Origin: Candidatus Bathyarchaeota archaeon
Lineage (GTDB): Archaea > Thermoproteota > Bathyarchaeia > Bathyarchaeales > Bathycorpusculaceae
DNA length: 64,000 bases
NCBI GenBank assembly: GCA_963720565.1
Contig: CAVRFW010000013.1
Coordinates: forward strand, 32,001-96,000
Reading direction: 5' to 3'
Under the pieces are notes generated by a model. That model was given only the letters and a program-made list of their open reading frames with translations. It did no database searches and had not been told where the DNA came from. Position numbers and translations under genes: made by a program. Below, piece by piece: positions 1,285 to 46,646 of this stretch. Each line of letters begins with the position of its first letter. Positions within the stretch are counted from its first letter, which is position 1.

Positions 1285-1400
1285 GATGGGCTGAGTGGGC
1301 TCTGGATTGAACTCTTGATATCGCAGTAGCGGTATAGATTTAGCATTCTCAATTCTCCTTTTTCTCTTATTTTTCGCGTTGCAGAGCCCCAGCAAACCCC
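1285..1400 (+). ncRNA. Candidate structured ncRNA, copy 1 (BHB-like arms, variable interior)
   Basis: Arms GATGGGCTGAGTGGGCTCTGG and GAGCCCCAGCAAACCCC recur at 25765-25874 and are mutually complementary; internal hairpin ATATCGC-AGTA-GCGGTAT; strand inferred from a U.G wobble and BHB geometry. Confidence 0.6.
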
Positions 1401-2890: not shown

Positions 2891-3803
2891 TTGAAGTATT
2901 TCGAGTGGTTAGCAACAACCAAAACCAAGTTGGTTGCTCTGCTAGTTGTGCTGGTTATCGTTCTCGCAAGCCTTATCGGAGCATTGGCGTTCAATCAATC
3001 GGATACACCTATTTCAACTCCAACTCCAGCACCTACTTCAACTCCAACATCCTACTCCAACACCCACTCCAACACCTACTCCAACTCCAACACCCACTCC
3101 AACACCTACTTCAACTCCAACACCCACTCCAACACCTACTCCTACTCCAACACCCACTCCAACGCCTTCACCTGCTCCAACTCCAACACCTCCACCAGAC
3201 GGAAACTGGGACGGGGGTACAGAATTTCTAATTCGAGACGAGATCCACACGTTTTCCGACAATTCACCTGTCGCCGTAGAGAACTGTGGCTGGCATTTCT
3301 GGTACGACACGTCAAGGTATCCTCAGAATTGGTACTCGCCTGTCGACTTCTGGAATGGCAAGATTTACACCCGCTGGGAGATTATAACACAGCCCACCAA
3401 CACAGCCTGCAGCTTCCAGATAGTCTGGTGGAAAGCCCTTCCAGAAGTAGTCAACGGCGTGGAAGTTGTGCAGGAGCTTTGGGATTTGCCCCAGCATCTT
3501 GCGGGGGGCGCAGGGTCAGTTGGCACATTCAGCACGGTGCTGAGCAACTTTCATGTTCAAGGATTAGGTATCGATTTGCACAACACAGGCAATCTCTGGC
3601 GTCAGGGAATCGCGATTATTGATGATGCCACCGGAAGCCCGGTATCTCCCCCTTCATGGGGATATGACGATGAGCCTTGGAACAGCCGCGCACAATGGTT
3701 CCCCATGAAAATGCGTTTGACTATCGTCGCCGTGGCAGCAGGAGCCACCTTCTCCGGATGGGATAGCTGGGTATCGACGCCTCCCACAGACGGCACCAGT
3801 TGA
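2891..3803 (+). CDS. Membrane-anchored/secreted protein with Pro-Thr linker (frameshift near 3048)
   Basis: N-terminal hydrophobic helix in the 2891 frame joins the (PT)n linker and Trp-rich globular domain of the 2946 frame. Confidence 0.7.
3013..3192 (+). repeat. Coding tandem repeat (ACTCCAACACCY units) encoding (Pro-Thr)n
   Basis: Repeated actccaacacccactccaacacct units visible directly. Confidence 0.9.
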
Positions 3804-15284: not shown

Positions 15285-15504
15285 TCTACAATTAGAGAGC
15301 AGACGGCAACATAAACTTGTTATTGAAGCAACTCCTTGAAAGAATAGAACTTAACTCTTGTTTTGACTATGTGCGGGTCTGCCGCTCTTTTAAGCAGTTC
15401 TTTGATCTGGTCTATCAGTGTCTTCAGAGAATATTGTCATGGGAAACTATTTTTTATGCCCATTTTTCTTCATTTCTGCTTACTGCTGCTTCCACGTCTT
15501 TTTT

Positions 15505-15563
15505 CCTTTGTTTTTTGTTTTGCTTTTTGTTTCGTTTTTCGGTTTGTTTTTTGTTTTGTTTTT
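15505..15563. repeat. Low-complexity ~12-bp tandem repeat (TTTTGTTTTTG-like)
   Basis: tttgttttttgttttgctttttgtttcgtttttcggtttgttttttgttttgttttt. Confidence 0.7.
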
Positions 15564-15692
15564 AATTTTGATTGCCCCTCCTGCACTATTCCTTCCACTG
15601 TTCAATTGTCCCGGACCCTTATTCGTTTTGCCTCCTGCCTCTTCAAGCAATCATCGAGTTTCTAGTTTAAACCAAAATGTGACGGATAAACT

Positions 15693-17896: not shown

Positions 17897-18090
17897 GCGC
17901 ACTTAATAAGAATTTTGCATAGAAACGCCCAGATAATTGTTTCTTATTGCACGCCCTAAATCGCAGACAGGCACGAGTTTGTCAAGAAAATTTGACTAAG
18001 AAAACCGGTTTTTGGGCGTATTTAGTCAAGAAACCTTTACAAAAACCCCTTTAAGTAAAAAAGGACATAGCTTAACTGGGGACACGACTG

Positions 18091-19330: not shown

Positions 19331-20125
19331 TTAGATATTTTTTTTGCCCGCAGTTTCCCAAAGGGTCTCAAAGTGGTCTTTAAGAATTGTGACCATGCTG
19401 GGGTTGTTCGTCCAAAGAGTCGTGGACTCAGCCAAAGACTTTGACGGAGAATAGTTGAAAGCCACTTCCTTGTTGTCGAAGATTGCGTAGTTTTTTCCAG
19501 AGGTATTTTTCACTTTTCTTATTTCTAGGTTGGGTTTTTTGAGCAGCGCTCGAGCATTTTCTGGAAAGTTGATTTCGGAGTCCAGTTCTTCTAATATTCC
19601 TCGATAATGCACTCCTCTGTTTAATGATTCTTCCCATGTGTTATAACAGTATTCGATGATTTGCATCCACCGTTTTGTGGTGGAGATGAAATCTACGCTG
19701 AATTTAGCATGGTCTTGTCCTGTTCTTAGTACTTGCAGCAGTTTATATTTCCCTTTGTTGACTACGATTCGGGATTCAGTGTCCTGGGGGGTTTCTTGGG
19801 TTTTGTCGAATTTTCGGACTAATCGGTCCAGTTTCTTCCGGTTTTCATTGTATTCCTCTAGTTGCCTCATCAGCAGAACTTGCGTTCCGATCTGGATTGG
19901 TACGGCCTCGTACTTGTACGGTGCTGCTAATTGTTTCTCGACTAAGCCAATATCTTGCAGTTCGTTAAGTATTCTATAGGTCTCCGTTCGAGGAGTCTTA
20001 GTCTGCTGTGAGAGGGCTATGGCGTCTTCTTTTCCATTTTTGAGAAGTGTGAGATAAAGATGTGCTTGGGAATTGGTTAGCCCCGTGTTTGTTAGGAATT
20101 GCACGTCTTCCTCTCGAATCGTCAA
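19331..20125 (-). CDS. TrmB family transcriptional regulator
   Basis: GLTNSQAHLYLTLL..ALS..TPRTETYRILNELQDIGLVEK HTH and C-terminal sensing domain (IFDNKEV..WTNN..HFETLW). Confidence 0.9.
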   Translation of the reverse strand: MTIREEDVQFLTNTGLTNSQAHLYLTLLKNGKEDAIALSQQTKTPRTETYRILNELQDIGLVEKQLAAPYKYEAVPIQIGTQVLLMRQLEEYNENRKKLDRLVRKFDKTQETPQDTESRIVVNKGKYKLLQVLRTGQDHAKFSVDFISTTKRWMQIIEYCYNTWEESLNRGVHYRGILEELDSEINFPENARALLKKPNLEIRKVKNTSGKNYAIFDNKEVAFNYSPSKSLAESTTLWTNNPSMVTILKDHFETLWETAGKKNI

Positions 20126-20170: not shown

Positions 20171-20275
20171 AGATTTAGTTCTTTCTGTAATAATATTGTA
20201 TTATTACAAGAAGTTATCTTCTTTCAGTGCCACTTGGACGCAGAAGCATTATTGCTTCTTATAAAGAAAGGAGAA
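20171..20275 (+). promoter_or_regulatory. Duplicated upstream region A (palindrome, hairpin, SD-like AAGGAGAA)
   Basis: 95/105 ungapped identity with 22981-23085; perfect TGTAATAATA-TTG-TATTATTACA at 20186-20208; AGAAGCA-TTAT-TGCTTCT at 20242-20259. Confidence 0.8.
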
Positions 20276-20282
20276 AAGCAGA

Positions 20283-22903
20283 ATGCATAAAAGTAATACT
20301 GCAATAGCGATTGTCCTATTTCTGATGTTTACGCTAACACTCACAGCATTACCTCTGGCTAAAGCACACGATCCTCCGTGGCAGATTCCAACGTATGCAT
20401 ACATACAAGCTGTTCCAAACCCCGTTGGTGTCGGACAGGCAGCCCACGTTTACATGTGGATTGACAAGATTCCTAACGGTGCCTCCCCAACCAATAACAT
20501 CCGACTGCACGACTACAAGCTCACGATCACGACGCCAGATGGCACAACAACAACAAAGACCTGGGCTACCGTTGAAGATACAACGTCAAACCAAGGTTAC
20601 TCTTTTACTCCCGCCCAAACAGGTACATTACACTCTCAAGTTCGATTTTCCAGGATTGACATTCACCTACACCGATTTAGTCTTTAGTTTCTTTGGTCCC
20701 CCTGGACCAAGTGCATACATCAACGATACTTATCTCCCTAGCACCGCAACAACTACGCTAACCGTTCAGGAAGAACCACTATACACGTACCCAACCACTC
20801 CACTTCCAACAGAATACTGGACACGACCAATATACGGAGAAAACTCAAATTGGTGGGCTATCTCTTCAAACTGGCTAGGCACTGGTGCACCCGGCTATGA
20901 TAACGGCATCGGAGGCGCTGGCTTCCCAGGCGACGCAATAGGCCCCCAAACCAGTCACGTCATGTGGACCAAACCCTTCCAAAGCGGCGGAGTCGTAGGA
21001 GGAAACAACTATGAAATCCAAGGAGACACATTCTTCGAAGGCTCAGCATACGCCAACAGATTCAACAACCCAATAATCGTTGATGGAATGCTCTACTACA
21101 AGGAACCCCTCTCTTTCGGCAGCGGGTCAGGCGGACCAACCAAATGCGTTGACCTGCGGACCGGACAAGTCATCTGGTCCCGCACCGACGTACCATCGCT
21201 ATCATTCGCCTACATGTATGACGTACAAAGCTTCAACCAGCACGGAGTCTATCCGCCAATTCTGTTTGCGAGCACCGGTGGATTCTTTTTCTCGGGCCCT
21301 GTGACTTTGAGAGCCTATGACGCATACACAGGCGACCATCTATTCAACTTGACAGGCGTCCCTGACGGCCAGACGGACATGGGTCCCAAAGGGGAGTACT
21401 TGGTCATCGGACTCACAAACTTGGGCAACTTCATGGCGCCAAACTACTATTTGACACAGTGGAACATGTCAAAACTATGGGAAAGCCAATACTTCGGGGC
21501 AAGCACAACACCCTCCATCATTCCACCAATTACCGACGCAACCAACCCAAGCCTATACGACTACAACATGTCAATGCCAACGCTCAACACTATGGCTTCG
21601 CCCACCATGCTTGCAGCCTTCACCGGGGACGTCGCGCTCTTCAGGAGCGGATCCTACCCTTGCAGGTGCAAGCACCTCGTTCAGTGCGCCAAGCAGCTCT
21701 CCCTACACGTACTTCGCAGTGAACCTCAACTCATCCAAGGGCGCAATCGGGTCCATTCAGTGGTCAAACACGGTCACCCCGCCAACAGGCAACATCACTG
21801 TCTCGTTCGCAGCAGCCGACCCGGACACCGATGTGTTCGTTGAATACCAAACAGAAACCATGCAGTACGTTGGATATAGCATGACGACAGGCCAGAAAAT
21901 ATGGGGACCAATCGGCAACCAAGACGCACTAGCCTTCTACTGGATGGGCTACAGCGGTCAAGGTGCCCAAGTTGCCTACGGAAACCTCTACAGCTGCAGC
22001 AACATGGCAGGAATAGTCTACTGCTTTGACCTGAAAACCGGAACCCAATTGTGGTCATACGGCAACGGCGGAGAAGGAAACAGCACACACAGCGGCTTCG
22101 AAGTACCGGGACCATATCCAACTATCATATATGCCATCGGCAACGACGTAGTATACACAGTGACCAGCGAACACACGGTTGAAACACCGATATACAAAGG
22201 CGCACTCACAAGAGCCATCAACGCCCACACCGGAGAAGAAATCTGGACGCTTTCAAACGACAACAACGCAGGTTCCTCAGCAGCTGCCATCGCAGACGGC
22301 TACGCAACCATCGCCAACGGCTATGACAACCAAATCTACGTCATCGGAAGAGGCTCTAGCCTAACCACTGCAACCGCGGGACCGAAAGTTCAGACATTCG
22401 GAAACAACGTGATCATAGAAGGCACAATCATGGACAGCTCCTCCGGCACGAAACAGGAAGAGCAGATTGCCCGTTTTCCAAACGGAGTCCCCTGTGCATC
22501 TGATGCAAGCATGAGTGACTGGATGAGCTACATCTACCAACAACAACCGTTTCCAACAGACTTCACAGGCGTCGAAGTATCAATTGACGTTTTTGACTCT
22601 AACGGCAACTACCGAAACATAGGCACAGCAACAACCGATGCAAAAGGCATGTACAGTTTCACATGGACCCCAGATATTCCAGGCGACTTCAAGGTAATCG
22701 TGACTTTCGCAGGCACAAACGGCTATTGGCCATCAAGCTCGGAAACAGTCTTCAACGTAATGCCCGCCCCGGAAGCCACCGTCGCCCCCACAGCATCCCC
22801 TGCATCATTAGCTGACCAGTACATGCTACCAGGAATTGGCGTCATAGTCGCTGCAATCGCAGTAGTCGGCGCTGTAATAGTGCTGATGCTCAGAAAGAAG
22901 TAA
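20283..22903 (+). CDS. Secreted PQQ-like beta-propeller surface protein, paralog 2 (frameshifts near 20628 and 21660)
   Basis: Signal peptide, PNPVGVGQ, PLPTEYWTRPI, HVMWTKP, RFPNGVP, SLADQYMLP-TM-LRKK distributed over three ORFs. Confidence 0.85.
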
Positions 22904-22980: not shown

Positions 22981-23085
22981 AGATTTGGTTTTTTCTGTAT
23001 TAATATTGTGTTATTACAAGAAGTTATCTTCTTCCAGTCCTACTTGGTCGCAGAAGCATTATTGCTTCTTAAAATGAAAGGAGAA
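22981..23085 (+). promoter_or_regulatory. Duplicated upstream region B
   Basis: 95/105 identical to 20171-20275; the palindrome carries two substitutions. Confidence 0.8.
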
Positions 23086-23094
23086 TAAGAAAAA

Positions 23095-25678
23095 ATGAAA
23101 TTTGCTAAAACTACATCTTTGTTTGCTTTGATTCTGATGATAACGCTAACAATCCCCATGATAATGCAAGCACCTGTAAAAGCGGATTCGACGGTGAATG
23201 TTAAAACTTATCTGTTTGTCAATGCGGCACCTAGCCCCGTGGGCGTCGGTCAAACTATATTCGTTAGCCTCTTCTTCAGCAAACCTGTACCCATTATCGG
23301 CGGATTCGGCGGCGCAACCCTGCTTGAAAATCTAAAGGTCAATATTGTCAAGCCAGACGGAACTAATGAGACACTCGGACCATATACATCTGACACGACA
23401 GGCGGTGTAGGCGGACTCACTTACACGCCAGCTACAACAGGAACCTACACCTTCCAAGGTATATTCCCTGGGCAAAATATTGGGATGGACTCTTTCACCA
23501 ACACTACCTATCATATGAATGCAGATATGAGTCCTGCCGTCACAGTTGTCGTACAGGAAGAAGCGGTAGGGGGCTATTTCTAGTCCTCCGCTTCCAACCG
23601 ATTACTGGACACGTCCATTATACGCAACAAACTACGATTGGGCGCAAAAGATTGGCGGAAACTGGTATGGCTTAGGAAGACCCGCGTTCAACCATTGCGG
23701 TGGATACGATGCCTCAAACAACAACTACAATCCATATAGCACTGCACCGAAAACTGCTCACGTTTTGTGGACCAAACCAACTACAACCGGAGGCCAACCT
23801 GGCGGCGAAACAATCGCTGATCAAAACAGCGCGTACTGTGCATCTTCTCCACTCTACCACAGCTTTGAGCCGGTGATTCTGAACGGAATAGTCTACTATA
23901 ATTATTGGGCAGCTCAAACAGACAATGCAGGCATCCTTGCAGTCGACATTCGCACAGGAGAAACACTCTGGCACAAAAACACCACTGACATATTGATTTA
24001 CGGTCAAGTTATGACGTTCCACAACAACGAGGAATTCGGCTCTCAAGCATTTCTATGGACATCACATGAGGCTGGCATAGGACCCATGGGCATGTTTGGC
24101 CCAACAATCATCTACGAATACAAAATAATCGATCCAGTAACAGGAAATGACATGGCCACCGTAACTGACATTCCCAGCGCAATCGGTGGTATGTTTTCAA
24201 CATCAATAGGCGCATCAATAGATAAAGAGCCAACCACTGGATTCTATTGCTCAGGAGGAATACTAATCCACTGGGTGGACAGCGGCAAACTCTACATGTG
24301 GAACTCAACTCTCATCCTAGCCCCTCCCTTTGCCTTCTTCGCGACACCATACAAGCCAACAGGCAGCTACAACTTCACAGCCGGCATACAATGGTCGGTA
24401 ACTCTCCCTGCAGCAAATCCAGCATATAGTATAGGACAAGCTCCTATAACCGACGAAGCAATAGTATTGACTTCATATCCCTCAATCCTTCCGACTTTCG
24501 CCACACAATACGGCGGTCCTACCGCTACAGACATAGCATACAATCCTAAAACTGGAGCACTCTTGTGGGGACCAGTAACCCAGACTTTGACGGAGCAGAA
24601 TCAAGTAGGCGTAGTAGCTGCAGGCGAGGGCGTCTATGTAAGACACGACAAAGATACAAATGAAGCGTTCGGATATTCACTGACAAATGGACAGAAACTC
24701 TGGGGACCAACCCAGCTTGTAGGCAACGCTCTAAGCCACCTATATGAATCTGCCGCAATCGCTTATGGCAGAGTTTACATTTGGGACTACGGCGGCTACT
24801 GCAACGCTATTGATCTTGAAACTGGACACCTTGACTGGACCTACACCCGCGGATCCTCTGGCTATGATAACCCATTCGGCTCATATCCTCTCTGGGTCTA
24901 CTCCTCCCAAAGCATTGCTGACGGAATGCTATTCCTCTCCGAAGGAAAGCTGTACGATCCACCTCTGTTCCCTAATGCACGAAAACTAGCCATAAACTGC
25001 ACTGACGGCTCAGTTGTCTGGTCGATAAACGGAGCATTCCAAAGAGACGTAGCACCTATCGCAGATGGCGAAATGCTTGCATGGAACGGATATGACGGCC
25101 AAATATACGCTTTCGGCACTGGAGCAACTAAGACTACTGTCACCGCACCTAACGTGGGCGTTACGACTTCCACGCCAATAACGATAACGGGTACAGTAAC
25201 GGATATCTCATCAGGCGCATCGCAAAATGCAGTTGCATCGAACTTCCCCAATGGCTTACCATGCGTTTCTGACGCAAGTATGACTCCATTTATGGAAGCC
25301 GTTTACGAGCAGCAAACAATGCCAACCAGCCTGACCGGAGTAACAGTAACAGTATCTGTCACCGACATAAACGGCAACAGTTACGACATAGGCACAACAA
25401 CAACTGACCCAACCACAGGTTTCTACAGCATAAACTGGACACCCACCATACCCGGCAACTTCCTTGTCACTGCAACTTTCGCAAACACTCAATCATACTA
25501 CGGATCCTCCGCTAAGACAGCCTTCTACGCAAGCGAAGCCCCTGCTGCCACTCCCGAACCGACTCAGGCACCTGCATCACTAGCTGACCAGTACTTGCTT
25601 CCTGCAACGGGCGGAATAATCGCGGCAATCGCAATAGTCGGCATAGCGATAATTGCGCTGATGCTCAGAAAAAAGTAG
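23095..25678 (+). CDS. Secreted PQQ-like beta-propeller surface protein, paralog 3 (frameshift near 23577)
   Basis: Removing one T restores GYSSPPLPTDYWTRP and joins the 23095 and 23765 ORFs; same family motifs and C-terminal anchor. Confidence 0.88.
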
Positions 25679-25727
25679 ACGCTTGAGAAGACCGAAATCT
25701 TCTCTTTCCCCTTTTTTAGTCAACCAA
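25679..25727 (+). terminator. Hairpin plus pyrimidine-tract terminator
   Basis: Identical to 22904-22952. Confidence 0.75.
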
Positions 25728-25764
25728 TAACGAGTACAAAGGAGAAGGATGGAGAGTTTAGAAG

Positions 25765-25874
25765 GATGGGGCTGAGTGGGCTCTGGAACAAGTCATGACT
25801 GTCTAGTCAGCAGTCAAGAGTTGAATTTCTTTCCTTTCTCCTTACAGTATAATTCCGGAGCCCCAGCAAACCCC
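25765..25874 (+). ncRNA. Candidate structured ncRNA, copy 2 (BHB-like arms, variable interior)
   Basis: GGG-GCTG-AGT-GGGCTCTGGAA ... TTCCGGAGCCC-CAGC-AAA-CCC; 11-bp inner stem with one U.G pair; internal hairpin TGACTG-TCTAGTCAG-CAGTCA. Confidence 0.65.
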
Positions 25875-26159
25875 TATTTATCTTTACTCAGGAGGCGCTT
25901 GGGGTCCAAAATCTTCAAAGAAGCAAGTCAGTCTTGGATCTTTCATGGTTAATTAAGAATTCTGCATGGAAATACCCAGATAATTATTTCAACCTCAGTC
26001 TGAGTGCGTGTAACGCATAAGTTGGTTATTCTCAAATCTTACTGGCTGCTTCGTTTAGTTTTTTCCGTGTTTTTGCCTGTGCTAAATAGTATTAAATACA
26101 AGTTGGTCTGAAAGGAGCATTGGCCTTGAAAAGGGCTTATAATGAAAGGAGAATAGAAA

Positions 26160-28691
26160 TTGACTAGAAATAGAATTGCTGCAGCGATTGTTATGTTTCT
26201 GATGTTAAGCATGATCATTGCGACAGTTGCTTTTCCGGCTGTTCGAGCACAGATTCTTCCCTCGTTCCTGCTAATCAACGTTGCACCTAACCCCATCGGC
26301 GTCGGACAAACCGCGCAGGTGAACGCTTTTCTAAGTAAACCGCCAATGACAGCGGGTCTGGGTGGTTCCGGCGACATGTTCAAAGGCATCACGGTGGAAG
26401 TCACGAGGCCTGACGGAACAAAGCAAACTCTGGGACCATTCACATCTGACGCAACAGGAGGAACCTACACCGCTTTCACGCCTAGTACAGTTGGCAACTA
26501 CACATTCAAAGCGTCTTACCCAGGGCAACGTATAGAGGCATGGTCGTACTCGCCGTTTGGTCCCCCGACTTTTATCAATGTTACATATACGGCCAGTACT
26601 AGCCCAACAGTAACCCTTGTCGTACAGGAAGAAGCTATACCGACATATTCCAGTCCTCCCCTTCCGACGGAATACTGGTCTCGCCCAATATACGCAACAA
26701 ACTACGGGTGGGCTCAACTTGGCGGAAGCTGGTTTGGACTTGCACCGGCAGTATTCGCCACCACTGGAGGGTATGATGCAACTGGAAACTTCAATCCATA
26801 CACCACCGCACCAAACACTGCTCACGTAATGTGGACAAAACCCACGCATTTCGGAGGACAAGCAGGATCACCTATAAGCGCCGACCAAATGAGCCAATAC
26901 ATGTCCACAACGATAGCCACGAACTTCTTCGAACCCGTAATCCTTAACGGAATACTCTACTACACTCATTTTGCGGGTCCAAACGCCGCCAAAGCAAGCT
27001 GGGAAGCTGTAGACATACGCACAGGAGAAGTCCTGTGGAGCAGATCAGCGGGCGAAACAGGCAATGAAGTCATTCGCATGGGCCAAATCCTGCGTTGGCA
27101 TTCGATTCAAGAATATGGTTCTTGGGCTTTCCTATATAGCTGCGAATCGGGAGGATTCTTCCAAGCAATATCCTTCTTCTCAATATATGATGCATTCACA
27201 GGAGAATTCGTAGCAAACATAACTGGAGTTCAGAATCCATCATTTCTGATGGATCTTGAATCAGAACAGCAGGGAACATTACTAGGCTACTACGTCGCTT
27301 CAGATGGCAACTTGACTCTTTGGAACTCGACCCGACTAATGATGAGCAATAGTTGGGATCAGATAACTATCCGTCCAGCCGGCACATACAATTGGTCGAC
27401 AGGAATAGAGTGGTCAGTGCCGATGCCAACAACGGTTGGAAACGCACCCATAGGCGGATCGATGGGCATTGCCGCAATAACTCCCGAAGTGATATTGCTC
27501 CGTTATGCTCCTTCACCCGGCATGTTTGTCGAACTCAGTTACGGCTATCAGATCACCGCAGGTATCGATGCAAAAACTGGAAGGTTGCTCTGGGGACCAA
27601 CAAACCAAACAATACCTAACCTTCAAGACGTGGCTATAATAGCAGCAGACGAAGGTGTCTACGTATTGCACAACAAAGACACGAATGAAGCATACGGTTA
27701 CTCACTAGAAACAGGGAACCTAATGTGGGGACCAGTTAAACTTCCAGGAAACGCTTGGGCCGTTATGTCACGGTCCGCGGAAATCGCCTACGGCAAAATA
27801 TTCATCTGGGACTTCGGCGGCTACGTGAATGCTTTGAACGCAGATACAGGAAGTATCGAGTGGACTTTAGTCCCGAGAAGTGCTGGCTACAACACTGGCT
27901 ATGGCATCTATCCCCTTTGGTACACTGGAAGCATATGCGACGGAAAGCTATTCCTCTCAGAGAGCCACATGTACAATCCGCCGCTGTTCCCAGACGCTCA
28001 AAGACTCGTTATCGACTGCGAAACAGGAGAGCTTGTCTGGAGCGTACTAAGCTTCGACGGGCGAGTGCCTGCCGCTCATGCAGACGGCTACATGGTAGAG
28101 TGGAACAGCTACGATAACCAAATATACTCATTCGGCAAGGGTCAAACCGCCACCACAATCGCAGCTTCGCCAAAGGTTTCAGTGCAAGGCAACAAAGTAT
28201 TGGTTGAAGGAACTGTTACTGACGAATCACCTGGAACGAAAGATTCCGATAGGACAGCTCGTTTTCCAAACGGCGTCCCAGCAGTCTCTGACACAAGCAT
28301 GAGTGCATGGATGGAATACGTTTACATGCAACAGCCCAAGCCTACGGACACAACTGGCGTTGAAGTAGTCATAACCGTTCTTGATCCTAACGGCAACTGT
28401 TACGAGGTAGGCAGAACAGCAAGCGACATGGACGGCTTTTTCAAGCTGACGTTTGAACCAGAAGTCCCAGGCGAATACACCGTATATGCCTCGTTTGAAG
28501 GCTCAGAGTCATACTGGCCCTCATCTGCGCTCACCGCTATAAGTGTGGCAGAAGCAACTGAAGCTACTCCTGAACCAACACAAGCGCCTGCAACTATGGC
28601 TGAACAGTACTTGCTGCCCGGAGTAGTCGGCCTGTTCGCTGCAATCGCAATCGTCGGCGTCGTATTAGCACTGCTACTCAGAAAACGCTAA
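26160..28691 (+). CDS. Secreted PQQ-like beta-propeller surface protein, paralog 4 (intact, 843 aa)
   Basis: TTG start after AAGGAGAA, signal peptide, propeller repeats, MAEQYLLP-TM-LRKR. Confidence 0.92.
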   Translation: MTRNRIAAAIVMFLMLSMIIATVAFPAVRAQILPSFLLINVAPNPIGVGQTAQVNAFLSKPPMTAGLGGSGDMFKGITVEVTRPDGTKQTLGPFTSDATGGTYTAFTPSTVGNYTFKASYPGQRIEAWSYSPFGPPTFINVTYTASTSPTVTLVVQEEAIPTYSSPPLPTEYWSRPIYATNYGWAQLGGSWFGLAPAVFATTGGYDATGNFNPYTTAPNTAHVMWTKPTHFGGQAGSPISADQMSQYMSTTIATNFFEPVILNGILYYTHFAGPNAAKASWEAVDIRTGEVLWSRSAGETGNEVIRMGQILRWHSIQEYGSWAFLYSCESGGFFQAISFFSIYDAFTGEFVANITGVQNPSFLMDLESEQQGTLLGYYVASDGNLTLWNSTRLMMSNSWDQITIRPAGTYNWSTGIEWSVPMPTTVGNAPIGGSMGIAAITPEVILLRYAPSPGMFVELSYGYQITAGIDAKTGRLLWGPTNQTIPNLQDVAIIAADEGVYVLHNKDTNEAYGYSLETGNLMWGPVKLPGNAWAVMSRSAEIAYGKIFIWDFGGYVNALNADTGSIEWTLVPRSAGYNTGYGIYPLWYTGSICDGKLFLSESHMYNPPLFPDAQRLVIDCETGELVWSVLSFDGRVPAAHADGYMVEWNSYDNQIYSFGKGQTATTIAASPKVSVQGNKVLVEGTVTDESPGTKDSDRTARFPNGVPAVSDTSMSAWMEYVYMQQPKPTDTTGVEVVITVLDPNGNCYEVGRTASDMDGFFKLTFEPEVPGEYTVYASFEGSESYWPSSALTAISVAEATEATPEPTQAPATMAEQYLLPGVVGLFAAIAIVGVVLALLLRKR

Positions 28692-43973: not shown

Positions 43974-46646
43974 TTGAAAATACACAAAAACGCAGCAGCG
44001 ATAATTTTGCTTTCTACGTTACTAATGCTTTCGATGGAAGTTTCAGTACTAGGACAAGTCACTTTTCCACCAGGAACCAAAATACCAACATACGCCTTCA
44101 TCAACGTTGCACCTAACCCAATAGGCGTCGGTCAATCAGTAACCGTTAACTTCTTCCTTGCAACACCCATGGAAAACAACGAAAGACCCACAAACATGAA
44201 TGTTAAGATAACCAAGCCTGACGGAACAACCCAAACACTGGGACCATTCACAGGAGACACAACCGGAGGATCATTCACCACATTCGTTCCCAGCCAAACT
44301 GGCACCTACTCGTTCCAGTTCCTCTATGGCGGACAAACACTAGCGCCAGGCGGAGGCTACGGAGGCCTCGTTAACCAGCCTAAGCGAAAGTGCTGTAGTA
44401 ATGCTCACAGTGCAAGAAGAACCGATATACGAAAGCGCGTATCCAGCCTCTCCGCTTCCAAGCAACTATTGGCAAACACCGGTTTCATCAATGAACGTCG
44501 AGAACTGGTACAAGATCATGGGACCATGGCTTGGAACTGGCTCAGTCACCTTTGCGCAAACCGGAGGCTACAACGTCAGCTCCATGTGCAATCCATACAC
44601 TGAATCAGTATTGTCCGGTCACGTTCTCTGGACAAAAGTCTGGGGTACCGGAGGCGTAGTCGGCGGCGATGCGGGCGGAGGTCAAGAATCGGGTCACTAC
44701 TGGTCAACCAGACAGTACTGGCCTCAATACGCACCGGTCATAATAAACGGCATAATGTATTCTACCTACTACCCGGAAACCACGGGCTACTCAAATGGCA
44801 TTCTCGCAACAGACCTCTACACAGGCGAAACCCTCTGGACAATAAACACCACTAACGCGTTGCGATGCGGCATGACCATGGACGTTAAAACAGCCAACGC
44901 TTACGGCGCTGTCGGTCCATACATCTGGACCACCGGCACTCTCCCAGCAGCAGACACAGGCGGAAGGCAAATCGGAGGTGGACCCTCGTCGTATATGAAC
45001 ACGACAGGAACACAATGGAACATGTATTCCGGCTTAACTGGACAATACGTCCTCAGCGTAGTCAACGGCACAACCATGACGCTTAGGCCAGACGAAAACG
45101 GAAACTTGATAGGCTACTACATCAACAGCACCGCCGGCCCACAAAATGTCTATTCCTTTGGAGAGGGAGGCGGATTCTTCGGACCCTCACTAGTCCCACG
45201 ATGGTGAATATTACTGGTCCTCGCATGTGCGCTTTCAACATGACACAATTGATAGGCAGTTCTTGGGGATGGGGTCCCTCGGTTAACGGCGTCTATGACT
45301 TTGCGCTAGGTGTAATGTGGTCAAAGCCAGTACCTACCACCATTTCAGGTGTGCCTATAACTCCGGGTCTTGCTTTGAACTCGATAACCGGCGATGCACT
45401 AGTTCTAAGCGGCGGATATGTTCACGGACAAGGAGTCGGAGGAGAAACGGCAGGCTGGCTCGTCATAGCAAGCATGGATCAAAACACAGGCAACGTGTTG
45501 ATGGTAAAGAACCTAACATACCCATCAACAATCTCGTTGTTACCTTTCACAAGAACAACCAGCTCGTTCGGTGACGGCCTGATCGCTATCGCAAACGACG
45601 TCAACAAAAACGTAGTTGCCTACGATGTGCATACAGGCAACAAGGTATGGGAAACAGCTCTTCAAACCGACAGCACTGACGGAAACCAAACGATTACGAC
45701 CTATTCAGCCTAAAGTCATGGGTAGCAAACGGCGTGATGTACTGGTTTGGCTTAGGAGGAGACATCTGGGCTCTTGAAACCAGACAACGGAAACGTAAGA
45801 TGGTACACAAACACGACAAGACTCATCGGCGACCCAGGAATTGAGACTCCCTACGGAATTTGGCCACTATGGGTTTTCAACAGCATGGGCCTCACAAACG
45901 ATGTGGCTTACTTCACTATCGGCCACGAATACAACCCACCACTCTTCCACGGCGCACAGATGCTAGCCGTAAACGCAACTAACGGAGAATTGATATGGAG
46001 CGAACTGGGCACCTACATCAGATCCACAGCCATTGCCTACGGAGTCATGTTGTCTCTGAACGCCTACGATAACCAGATATACGCATTCGCCAAGGGACCA
46101 AGCGCAACCACCGTCACGGCTCCCAGCGTAGGAGTCGCAACCGACACCCCAATAACGATAACAGGCACGGTAATGGACGTTTCAGCTGGCACTCAACAAA
46201 GCGAAGTCGCAAAGAACTTCCCCAACGGCCTCCCATGCGTCTCTGACGAAAGCATGAGCAGCTGGATGGAATACGTCTACCAAAACCAGCCATGTCCAGC
46301 AGACTTTACAGGCGTCAAAGTTACCCTAAACGTCCTTGACTCAAACGGCAACTTCAGACCAATCGGCACCGCCACAACCGATGCTTCGGGCACATTCGGC
46401 TACACTTGGACCCCTGACATACCAGGCAACTACCGAGTCATCGCCAACTTTGAAGGAACAAACGGCTACTATCCATCCTCTGCCACAACATACTTCTACG
46501 CCAGCGAAGCTCAACAACCCACTCCTGAACCAACTCAGGCTCCCACATCTTTAGCTGACCAGTATCTGCTGCCTGCAACAGGCGGAATCATCGCTGCAAT
46601 CGCAATAGTCGGCGTCGCGCTAGCACTATTGCTCAGAAAACGGTAA
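43974..46646 (+). CDS. Secreted PQQ-like beta-propeller surface protein, paralog 5 (about four frameshifts)
   Basis: TTG after AAGGAGAA; PNPIGVGQ, HVLWTK, NFPNGLP, SLADQYLLP-TM-LRKR over ORFs 43902, 44401, 45201 and 45774. Confidence 0.85.

Follow-up and report, generated by a model that had tools for sequence, protein, structure and literature searches.

The window analysed here, a stretch of 64,000 nucleotides (nt), covers C13:32001-96000 (contig CAVRFW010000013.1) of the 2.09-Mb, 13-contig genome of a Candidatus Bathyarchaeota archaeon (GCA_963720565.1). Within it, between two genes of one protein family, lies a short element made of two pairing arms and a loop (Table 1). The proteins of this family are ~850 aa long and carry a signal-peptide-like N terminus, matches to Ig-like and PQQ_2 beta-propeller domains and a C-terminal hydrophobic anchor, features that suggest a location at the cell surface. 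Sixteen paralog starts were curated in this genome. An earlier reading of the window (the original prediction) held that a constant scaffold carries a variable guide that occludes the Shine-Dalgarno (SD) sequence and start codon of sister surface-protein mRNAs. The element belongs to a real RNA family, apparently undescribed, that is conserved in Bathyarchaeia and whose structure and antisense pairing have good comparative support.

The window was compared with Rfam 15 (C/D, H/ACA, signal recognition particle, riboswitch and CRISPR repeat families). No match at the gathering threshold was obtained in the window, and positions 25650-26200 gave two chance-level matches only (E 1.7 and 8.4). No description of the element was found by title or abstract opening in a literature search that had supplements outside its scope and covered few subscription journals.

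Bulge-helix-bulge geometry of the scaffold

From the outside inwards, the paired arms form an outer helix, a 3-nt bulge in the 3' strand, a helix of 4 bp, a 3-nt bulge in the 5' strand and an inner stem. Each bulge lies 3' of the central helix, as in the canonical hBHBh' substrate of the tRNA splicing endonuclease EndA. This bulge-helix-bulge (BHB) geometry was missed by the original prediction and found in the present analysis. Among 90 distinct copies, a set that includes the 16 seed sequences, strict BHB geometry was present in 68 on the plus strand and in 5 on the minus strand. G-U combinations outnumber A-C combinations in scaffold pairs (57 vs 26). From the BHB polarity and the G-U bias together we conclude that the plus strand is the functional one, which disfavours the minus-strand decoy that had been offered as an alternative. 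Folding energy does not give the strand, because the minus strand scores much like the plus strand, which folds at z = -3.4 over 25765-25880.

Covariation was assessed on 29 copies found by a covariance model. In an alignment that had been fitted to the structure, 95.3% of cells were paired and two-sided changes occurred in 12 of the 16 pairs, more than in all 500 shuffles and all slid controls. All of these changes fall in the flanking helices (12/12 pairs). The 5' bulge is made of seven different triplets at a constant length of 3 nt; the central helix and the 3' bulge are near-invariant (66/68 each). When the 2.09-Mb genome was scanned on both strands without use of the scaffold sequence, four strong BHB hairpins came up, all of them copies of the element and one of them the copy studied here; looser BHB rules gave chance matches in AT-rich DNA. 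Other geometries were also tried, and the 3-3-5 register fits 32 of the 90 copies, while none besides this and the 3-4-4 register discussed below fits more than 6.

The genome encodes EndA (two PF01974 loci, C9:270157 and C5:259007) and the ligase family RtcB, the latter in two pieces in the assembly, and some Bathyarchaeia are reported to have circular 16S rRNA (PMC12918454). On the geometry and the encoded enzymes, excision of the element by EndA is fairly probable; the predicted excised piece measures 69-112 nt across copies.

Public RNA data were also considered. Eleven runs contain small shares of 25300-26500. The four examined are all contigs, mostly of relatives, and hold bits of paralog coding sequence with no cover of 25671-26097 and no joints, which makes them uninformative rather than negative.

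Complementarity of the loop to paralog translation starts

The reverse complement of 25836-25852 is identical to 26137-26153, in the leader of the next paralog, at 15 of 17 positions, and to the leaders of two other paralogs (20259-20275 and 23069-23085) at 14 of 17 each. Two further complementary blocks follow in order, 25824-25830 to 26155-26161 and 25802-25809 to 26161-26168. These matches are just as the original prediction described them. It also placed the last block in the loop of a 6-bp hairpin. The hairpin exists (25797-25802 with 25810-25815, 6 bp including one U-G, or 7 bp counting 25796/25816), but its loop is 25803-25809, so that the first base of the 8-nt block (25802) lies in the stem and the rest in the loop. 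In a near-identical copy on contig C5, one A-U pair of this hairpin is changed to G-U.

The pattern is general among copies. In 118 of 163 loops a CAT triplet (anti-AUG) and an anti-SD lie 5-14 nt apart, vs 21.75 in shuffles. Of the 45 CAT-less loops, 19 have CGT instead, which still pairs with AUG by wobble; shuffles held about 17 CGT among about 141 non-CAT loops. By inspection, many loops carry a second block against the first codons, often displayed in a small hairpin. GGAG is found in 15 of the 16 paralog leaders of the window genome, and the loop of the window copy differs from the 16S 3' tail of the same genome.

Seven guides were ranked against the 16 paralog starts and 204 other starts led by GGAGA. 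With raw duplex energies (RNAduplex), paralogs were favoured at p<0.05 for only 2 of the 7 guides, the window copy being borderline (p=0.067); a raw ranking over ~2,000 starts covers three guides and part of a fourth. Raw energies separate poorly because U-rich guides favour any G-rich target. Corrected scores, adopted after the raw result had been seen, were a complementarity alignment or the energy minus a shuffled-guide baseline. With these all seven guides separated paralogs from controls, with an area under the curve (AUC) of 0.82-0.89 by alignment and 0.75-0.88 by energy. For the window copy the values were 0.89 and 0.87, respectively. Paralogs held 1-8 of the top 10 places among the 220 starts, and six for the window copy. 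Against 104 SD-led signal-peptide-like genes, the AUC was 0.74-0.92 (0.92 for the window copy). Paralog leaders thus rank above a purine-rich SD background on corrected scores, as had been predicted; since these leaders are related to each other, the ranking p-values overstate. Among the best predicted targets, three genes outside the paralog family that have signal-peptide-like starts appear repeatedly (C2:27208, C2:29326 and C9:65056) and may be further targets.

Loops and leaders also change together across genomes, another expectation of the original prediction that was borne out. Own-genome leaders were paired better than other-genome leaders by 61 of 90 guides, the own genome being among the top four of 15 in 8 cases. 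Two genomes, G219 and G224, have lost both partners, with GGAG in 0/18 leaders and CTCC in 0/21 loops, and single loops there match single leaders closely; as the two belong to one genus, this is one event. Starts come from a script that may have misplaced some of them (e.g. two in G224 and G128). Three upstream and three downstream starts judged internal, one duplicate element and one ORF antisense to a copy were dropped. Taken together, the loop is likely antisense to paralog mRNAs, and the central proposal of a constant scaffold with a variable loop directed at sister SD sequences and start codons holds at the level of complementarity.

Which paralog would be targeted is less clear. By raw energy, the window copy ranks C9:7052 first among the 16 paralogs, the next gene second and the host gene (the paralog immediately upstream) 13th. 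The next gene had been singled out as a special target. It was better than other sisters in 13 of 21 cases (p=0.18) and the best target in 4 vs 3.6 expected, and the special role was not confirmed; one other copy in the window genome fits its unusual next leader best. Host leaders paired worse than sisters by 0.92 kcal/mol in a first set of 60 pairs from 14 genomes (P=0.0036) and by 0.72 kcal/mol when pooled (P=0.014, positive in 11/16 genomes), in a comparison where paralog sets outside the window genome were incomplete and starts machine-picked. Host leaders in the window genome rank 11, 13, 14 and 15 of 16. The host leader was the best target in 17 of 72 cases vs 16 expected, i.e. at chance level. 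That a guide selectively spares its own gene is possible, if somewhat doubtful. Mutually exclusive expression of the paralogs, also put forward by the original prediction, agrees with the self-avoidance of the first and pooled sets and not with the best-target count or the held-out pairs described below, and it is weakly indicated at most.

Distribution and genomic setting

The window genome has seven copies by paired arms and eight by the covariance model. The exact scaffold pattern matched 6 of 151 genomes of the family. With the covariance model, 18 of the 151 class genomes gave matches; most of these belong to two families of a single order, and most have 5-11 copies. Of the 74 loci with relatives of the element, 68 come from records that carry Bathyarchaeota or Bathyarchaeia in the title; the remaining six were titled Crenarchaeota (2), Nanoarchaeia (2), Methanoregulaceae (1) and Bacteroidota (1). 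Four loci titled Methanoregulaceae, Nanoarchaeia or Bacteroidota (L044, L050, L058 and L094) have the exact scaffold, three of them beside the same beta-propeller family. Our guess, as the simplest reading, is that the off-title loci are misbinned contigs. No viral copies were found in IMG/VR with a degenerate-pattern search.

In 59 of 76 exact-scaffold matches, the end of a same-strand paralog lies no more than 400 nt upstream, and several of the matches without one sit at contig ends. In 134 of 161 copies the scaffold follows a C-T5+ tract at a distance of 15-63 nt (median 30.5), and TATA-like words at -45..-18, where an own promoter would be expected, were seen in only 10 of 161. The copy on C5 and the window copy are 87.6% identical over 202 nt, gene end included, and guides of one genome are often near-identical, which suggests spread by recombination at conserved gene ends. 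Near-identical guides fit a family-wide brake as well as exclusion.

At L149, L150, L151, L152, L153, L154, L165 and L166, elements stand in tandem, paired 20-50 nt apart behind one U-tract and with different loops, possibly a polycistronic guide precursor. Half elements occur behind unrelated genes, as lone right arms at C5:347164, C6:9298 and C3:36812 and as a lone left arm with loop at C5:347868; they are probably decayed or rearranged copies.

Table 1. Positions in the window of the element, its parts and the neighbouring features
Feature	Position	Strand	Remarks
Copy 1 of the same element	1288..1399	+	3' of paralog ending at 1204
Leader of another paralog (gene 20283-22903, frameshifted in assembly)	20259..20285	+	Weak target of window copy, top target of C3 copy
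Host gene, beta-propeller (PQQ_2-like) putative surface-protein paralog	23095..25678	+	Frame break near 23577-23579 in present assembly
Terminator-like end of host gene	25685..25717	+	7-bp hairpin 25685-25691 with 25698-25704, C run, T6 tract 25712-25717; termination predicted
Scaffold 5' arm	25768..25788	+	Outer helix 25768-25770, central 4-bp strand 25771-25774, 3-nt bulge 25775-25777, inner stem 25778-25788
Predicted 5' cut	25776/25777	+	In 3-nt bulge of 5' arm, from BHB geometry
Predicted excised guide RNA, 93 nt, probably circularised	25777..25869	+	From BHB geometry; EndA and RtcB families encoded
Small hairpin inside loop	25796..25816	+	7-nt loop complementary to start codon and codons 2-3 of 'M-T-R-N' paralog subfamily
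Single-stranded anti-SD/anti-leader block	25824..25852	+	Mean unpaired probability 0.92 (fold)
Scaffold 3' arm	25853..25873	+	Inner stem 25853-25863, central strand 25864-25867, AAA bulge 25868-25870, outer helix 25871-25873
Predicted 3' cut	25869/25870	+	In AAA bulge of 3' arm, from BHB geometry
TATA-like box	26090..26098	+	~65 nt before next paralog; similarly placed box in paralogs C2, C9a-c
Leader, SD and TTG start of next paralog	26137..26168	+	Second-best paralog target of window guide, raw energy
Next paralog, intact, 843 aa	26160..28691	+	Domain architecture as described for the family

The TATA-like box upstream of the next paralog implies, if functional, a 5' UTR that contains the matched leader. 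A matched TTATAA, considered as the TATA box of a leaderless mRNA, was rejected: it is not conserved among paralogs, GGAG is, and the TATA-like box lies further upstream. No element was found 3' of the intact next paralog. Frameshifts interrupt three of the window's four complete paralogs (20283-22903, 23095-25678 and 43974-46646). Assembly indels are likely, because the RtcB gene is also in two pieces; pseudogenes or slipped-strand switching may be alternative readings.

A TrmB-family regulator (19331-20125, minus strand) lies head to head with a cluster of three paralogs, the first two of which have 113 nt of upstream region in common at 89%. A second, AT-rich intergenic repeat of ~42 nt occurs in the window at 25949-25990 and 17903-17943 and elsewhere in the genome at C3:36858-36899, near 32830 on C3 and at C6:9497, several copies being near elements or lone right arms; it is possibly a regulator site. 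Other repeats in the window are a 12-nt T-rich tandem repeat and a Pro/Thr-coding repeat (15487-15582 and 2981-3203).

Proposed antisense cassette, alternatives and known systems

The best explanation overall, which we hold with slightly more belief than doubt, is a gene-linked antisense RNA cassette whose excised guides repress sister surface-protein mRNAs in trans. The element would be transcribed by polymerases that read through the U-tract at the end of the surface-protein gene upstream; termination at U-tracts is described as partial in Methanococcus, with a median of 30-55% (PMC8716108). The arms would fold into a long stem closed by the BHB, a structure supported by covariation, the tRNA splicing endonuclease would cut both bulges, and RtcB would probably close the roughly 95-nt piece into a circle shielded from exonucleases. 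The open loop could then pair in trans with the SD and start codon, and often the first codons, of mRNAs of the ~16-member family, blocking their translation. A paralog that is expressed would thereby turn down its sisters more strongly than itself, and the outcome would be either strict expression of one paralog at a time or no more than a ceiling on what the family produces in total. A bolder version, which we consider rather unlikely, is an archaeal microRNA-like pathway built on the tRNA splicing machinery, in which every surface-protein gene gives off, from downstream of its terminator, an EndA-excised circular guide that silences sister starts, and one or a few of ~16 variants are displayed per cell.

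Several observations, besides the poor separation by raw energy, weigh against the cassette. The central helix shows two-sided changes in 0 of 4 pairs and is near-invariant, with 97.4% of cells paired, in contrast to the BHB described in PMC7714728 as being without sequence conservation. Because of G and C runs, 63 of 90 copies can also be read in a slipped 3-4-4 register. Expression would need readthrough, because the element stands behind a terminator-like tract, and no transcript, cut or junction was seen in the four RNA contig sets, uninformative as these are for the element. The own genome came first of 15 in only 4 cases, and genome G272 kept CTCC in 7/7 loops with GGAG in 0/3 sampled leaders. 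Avoidance of the host leader was absent in 12 held-out pairs (P=0.64). Finally, five genomes without a model match were checked; the protein family is missing from three of them, and the other two carry many paralogs and no element, so the cassette would be dispensable in some lineages.

One alternative keeps the targets and drops the splicing: a linear antisense small RNA (sRNA) derived from the 3' end, with the BHB look-alike as an unspliced protein-binding or nuclease-blocking motif. The near-invariance of the central helix and 3' bulge suggests sequence recognition, and the unchanging pairs of that helix and the 22 of 90 copies that fail the strict BHB rule point the same way; yet the 5' bulge varies in sequence at fixed length, the polarity is correct only on the plus strand and few other geometries fit, and we judge this reading unlikely. 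If instead the loops acted as a general anti-SD brake on leadered or secreted-protein mRNAs, the paralog match would be a by-product of common origin. Several unrelated G-rich starts do come out on top in raw-energy rankings and a few non-paralog starts (C2:27208, C2:29326) recur, but the high places of paralogs on corrected scores, their advantage over signal-peptide-like controls and the difference of the loop from the 16S tail make this very unlikely.

Slightly less probable still is a product of the minus strand, such as a leader mimic, ribosome decoy or micro-ORF, or else a neutral relic of an inverted duplication of a paralog 5' end. Most loops read on that strand resemble an SD with ATG and a few codons, and guide-C/target-A mismatches are frequent, at 223 of 1964 target A positions. 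The plus strand is favoured, however, by polarity and G-U bias, and CGT in the CAT-less loops keeps AUG pairing while removing the minus-strand ATG. Wobble-type differences modestly exceed their mirror types (23% vs 16% and 15% vs 11%), frames and lengths of the would-be micro-ORFs differ between copies by inspection, and the element is conserved across two families. Least probable, in our view, is a cis element whose 3' loop folds back on its own mRNA leader for feedback or stability control by end-to-end pairing. The linkage to a paralog and the host leader being at times the best match would suit it, but the latter occurs at chance level, and host leaders pair worse than sisters on average and rank low in the window genome. 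Two further ideas were discarded. Auto-inhibition by an upstream GGAG, present in 53 of 161 spacers, is absent from the precursor fold, and an invertible DNA promoter was rejected in view of arms that are imperfect, bulged and G-U biased.

Should the antisense cassette be confirmed, the archaeal splicing endonuclease would gain a class of dedicated regulatory products beyond the tRNAs, rRNAs and single mRNAs that the cited work names as its substrates. The cassette would also be a natural programmable format, with a constant self-excising scaffold and an exchangeable 50-80-nt antisense loop, of use for knock-down in archaea, and would offer a testable way into the question why these abundant sediment archaea have so many genes for one large surface protein (~16 in the window genome) and what decides which of them is used. 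The microRNA-like version, if true, would amount to RNA-based allelic exclusion or antigenic-type variation in Bathyarchaeia.

The element is a member of none of the known systems that it resembles. Archaeal BHB introns, cut by EndA and circularised, are described in tRNAs, pre-16S/23S rRNA and the 5' UTR of Haloferax HVO_1309 (PMC7714728, PMC12558985, PMC12918454). The element has the same 4-bp helix between two 3-nt bulges, a predicted small circle and the encoded enzymes. Unlike these introns as described there, it lies behind a protein gene rather than in a tRNA or rRNA, its excised piece looks like the product and its flanks disposable, and it is multi-copy with a variable antisense loop. 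Introns of tRNA-Trp yield C/D guides for rRNA and tRNA, whereas the element is predicted to block mRNAs. Like Methanosarcina mazei sRNA162, it would be an archaeal trans-acting RNA with a single-stranded region that masks a ribosome-binding site; the sRNA162 abstract presents one sRNA with a few targets and mentions neither BHB processing nor a link to a paralog family (PMC3510493). The FopS RNAs of Bacteroides thetaiotaomicron likewise make up a family of multi-copy sRNAs; they bind the mRNAs of paralogous surface proteins (SusC) close to the start codon and repress translation. As described, FopS sRNAs are bacterial, mostly intergenic, driven by their own promoters and equipped with a common constant seed (PMC11697453); the element has a variable seed on a constant scaffold, and its copies mostly follow a gene that itself belongs to the target family. 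Yeast free tRNA introns (fitRNAs), finally, are RNAs freed by the tRNA splicing endonuclease that repress complementary mRNAs, as the element would. As characterised in PMC13079951, fitRNAs come as by-products of genuine tRNAs and base-pair with ORF sequences, while the element has no tRNA body and its loops are complementary to translation starts.
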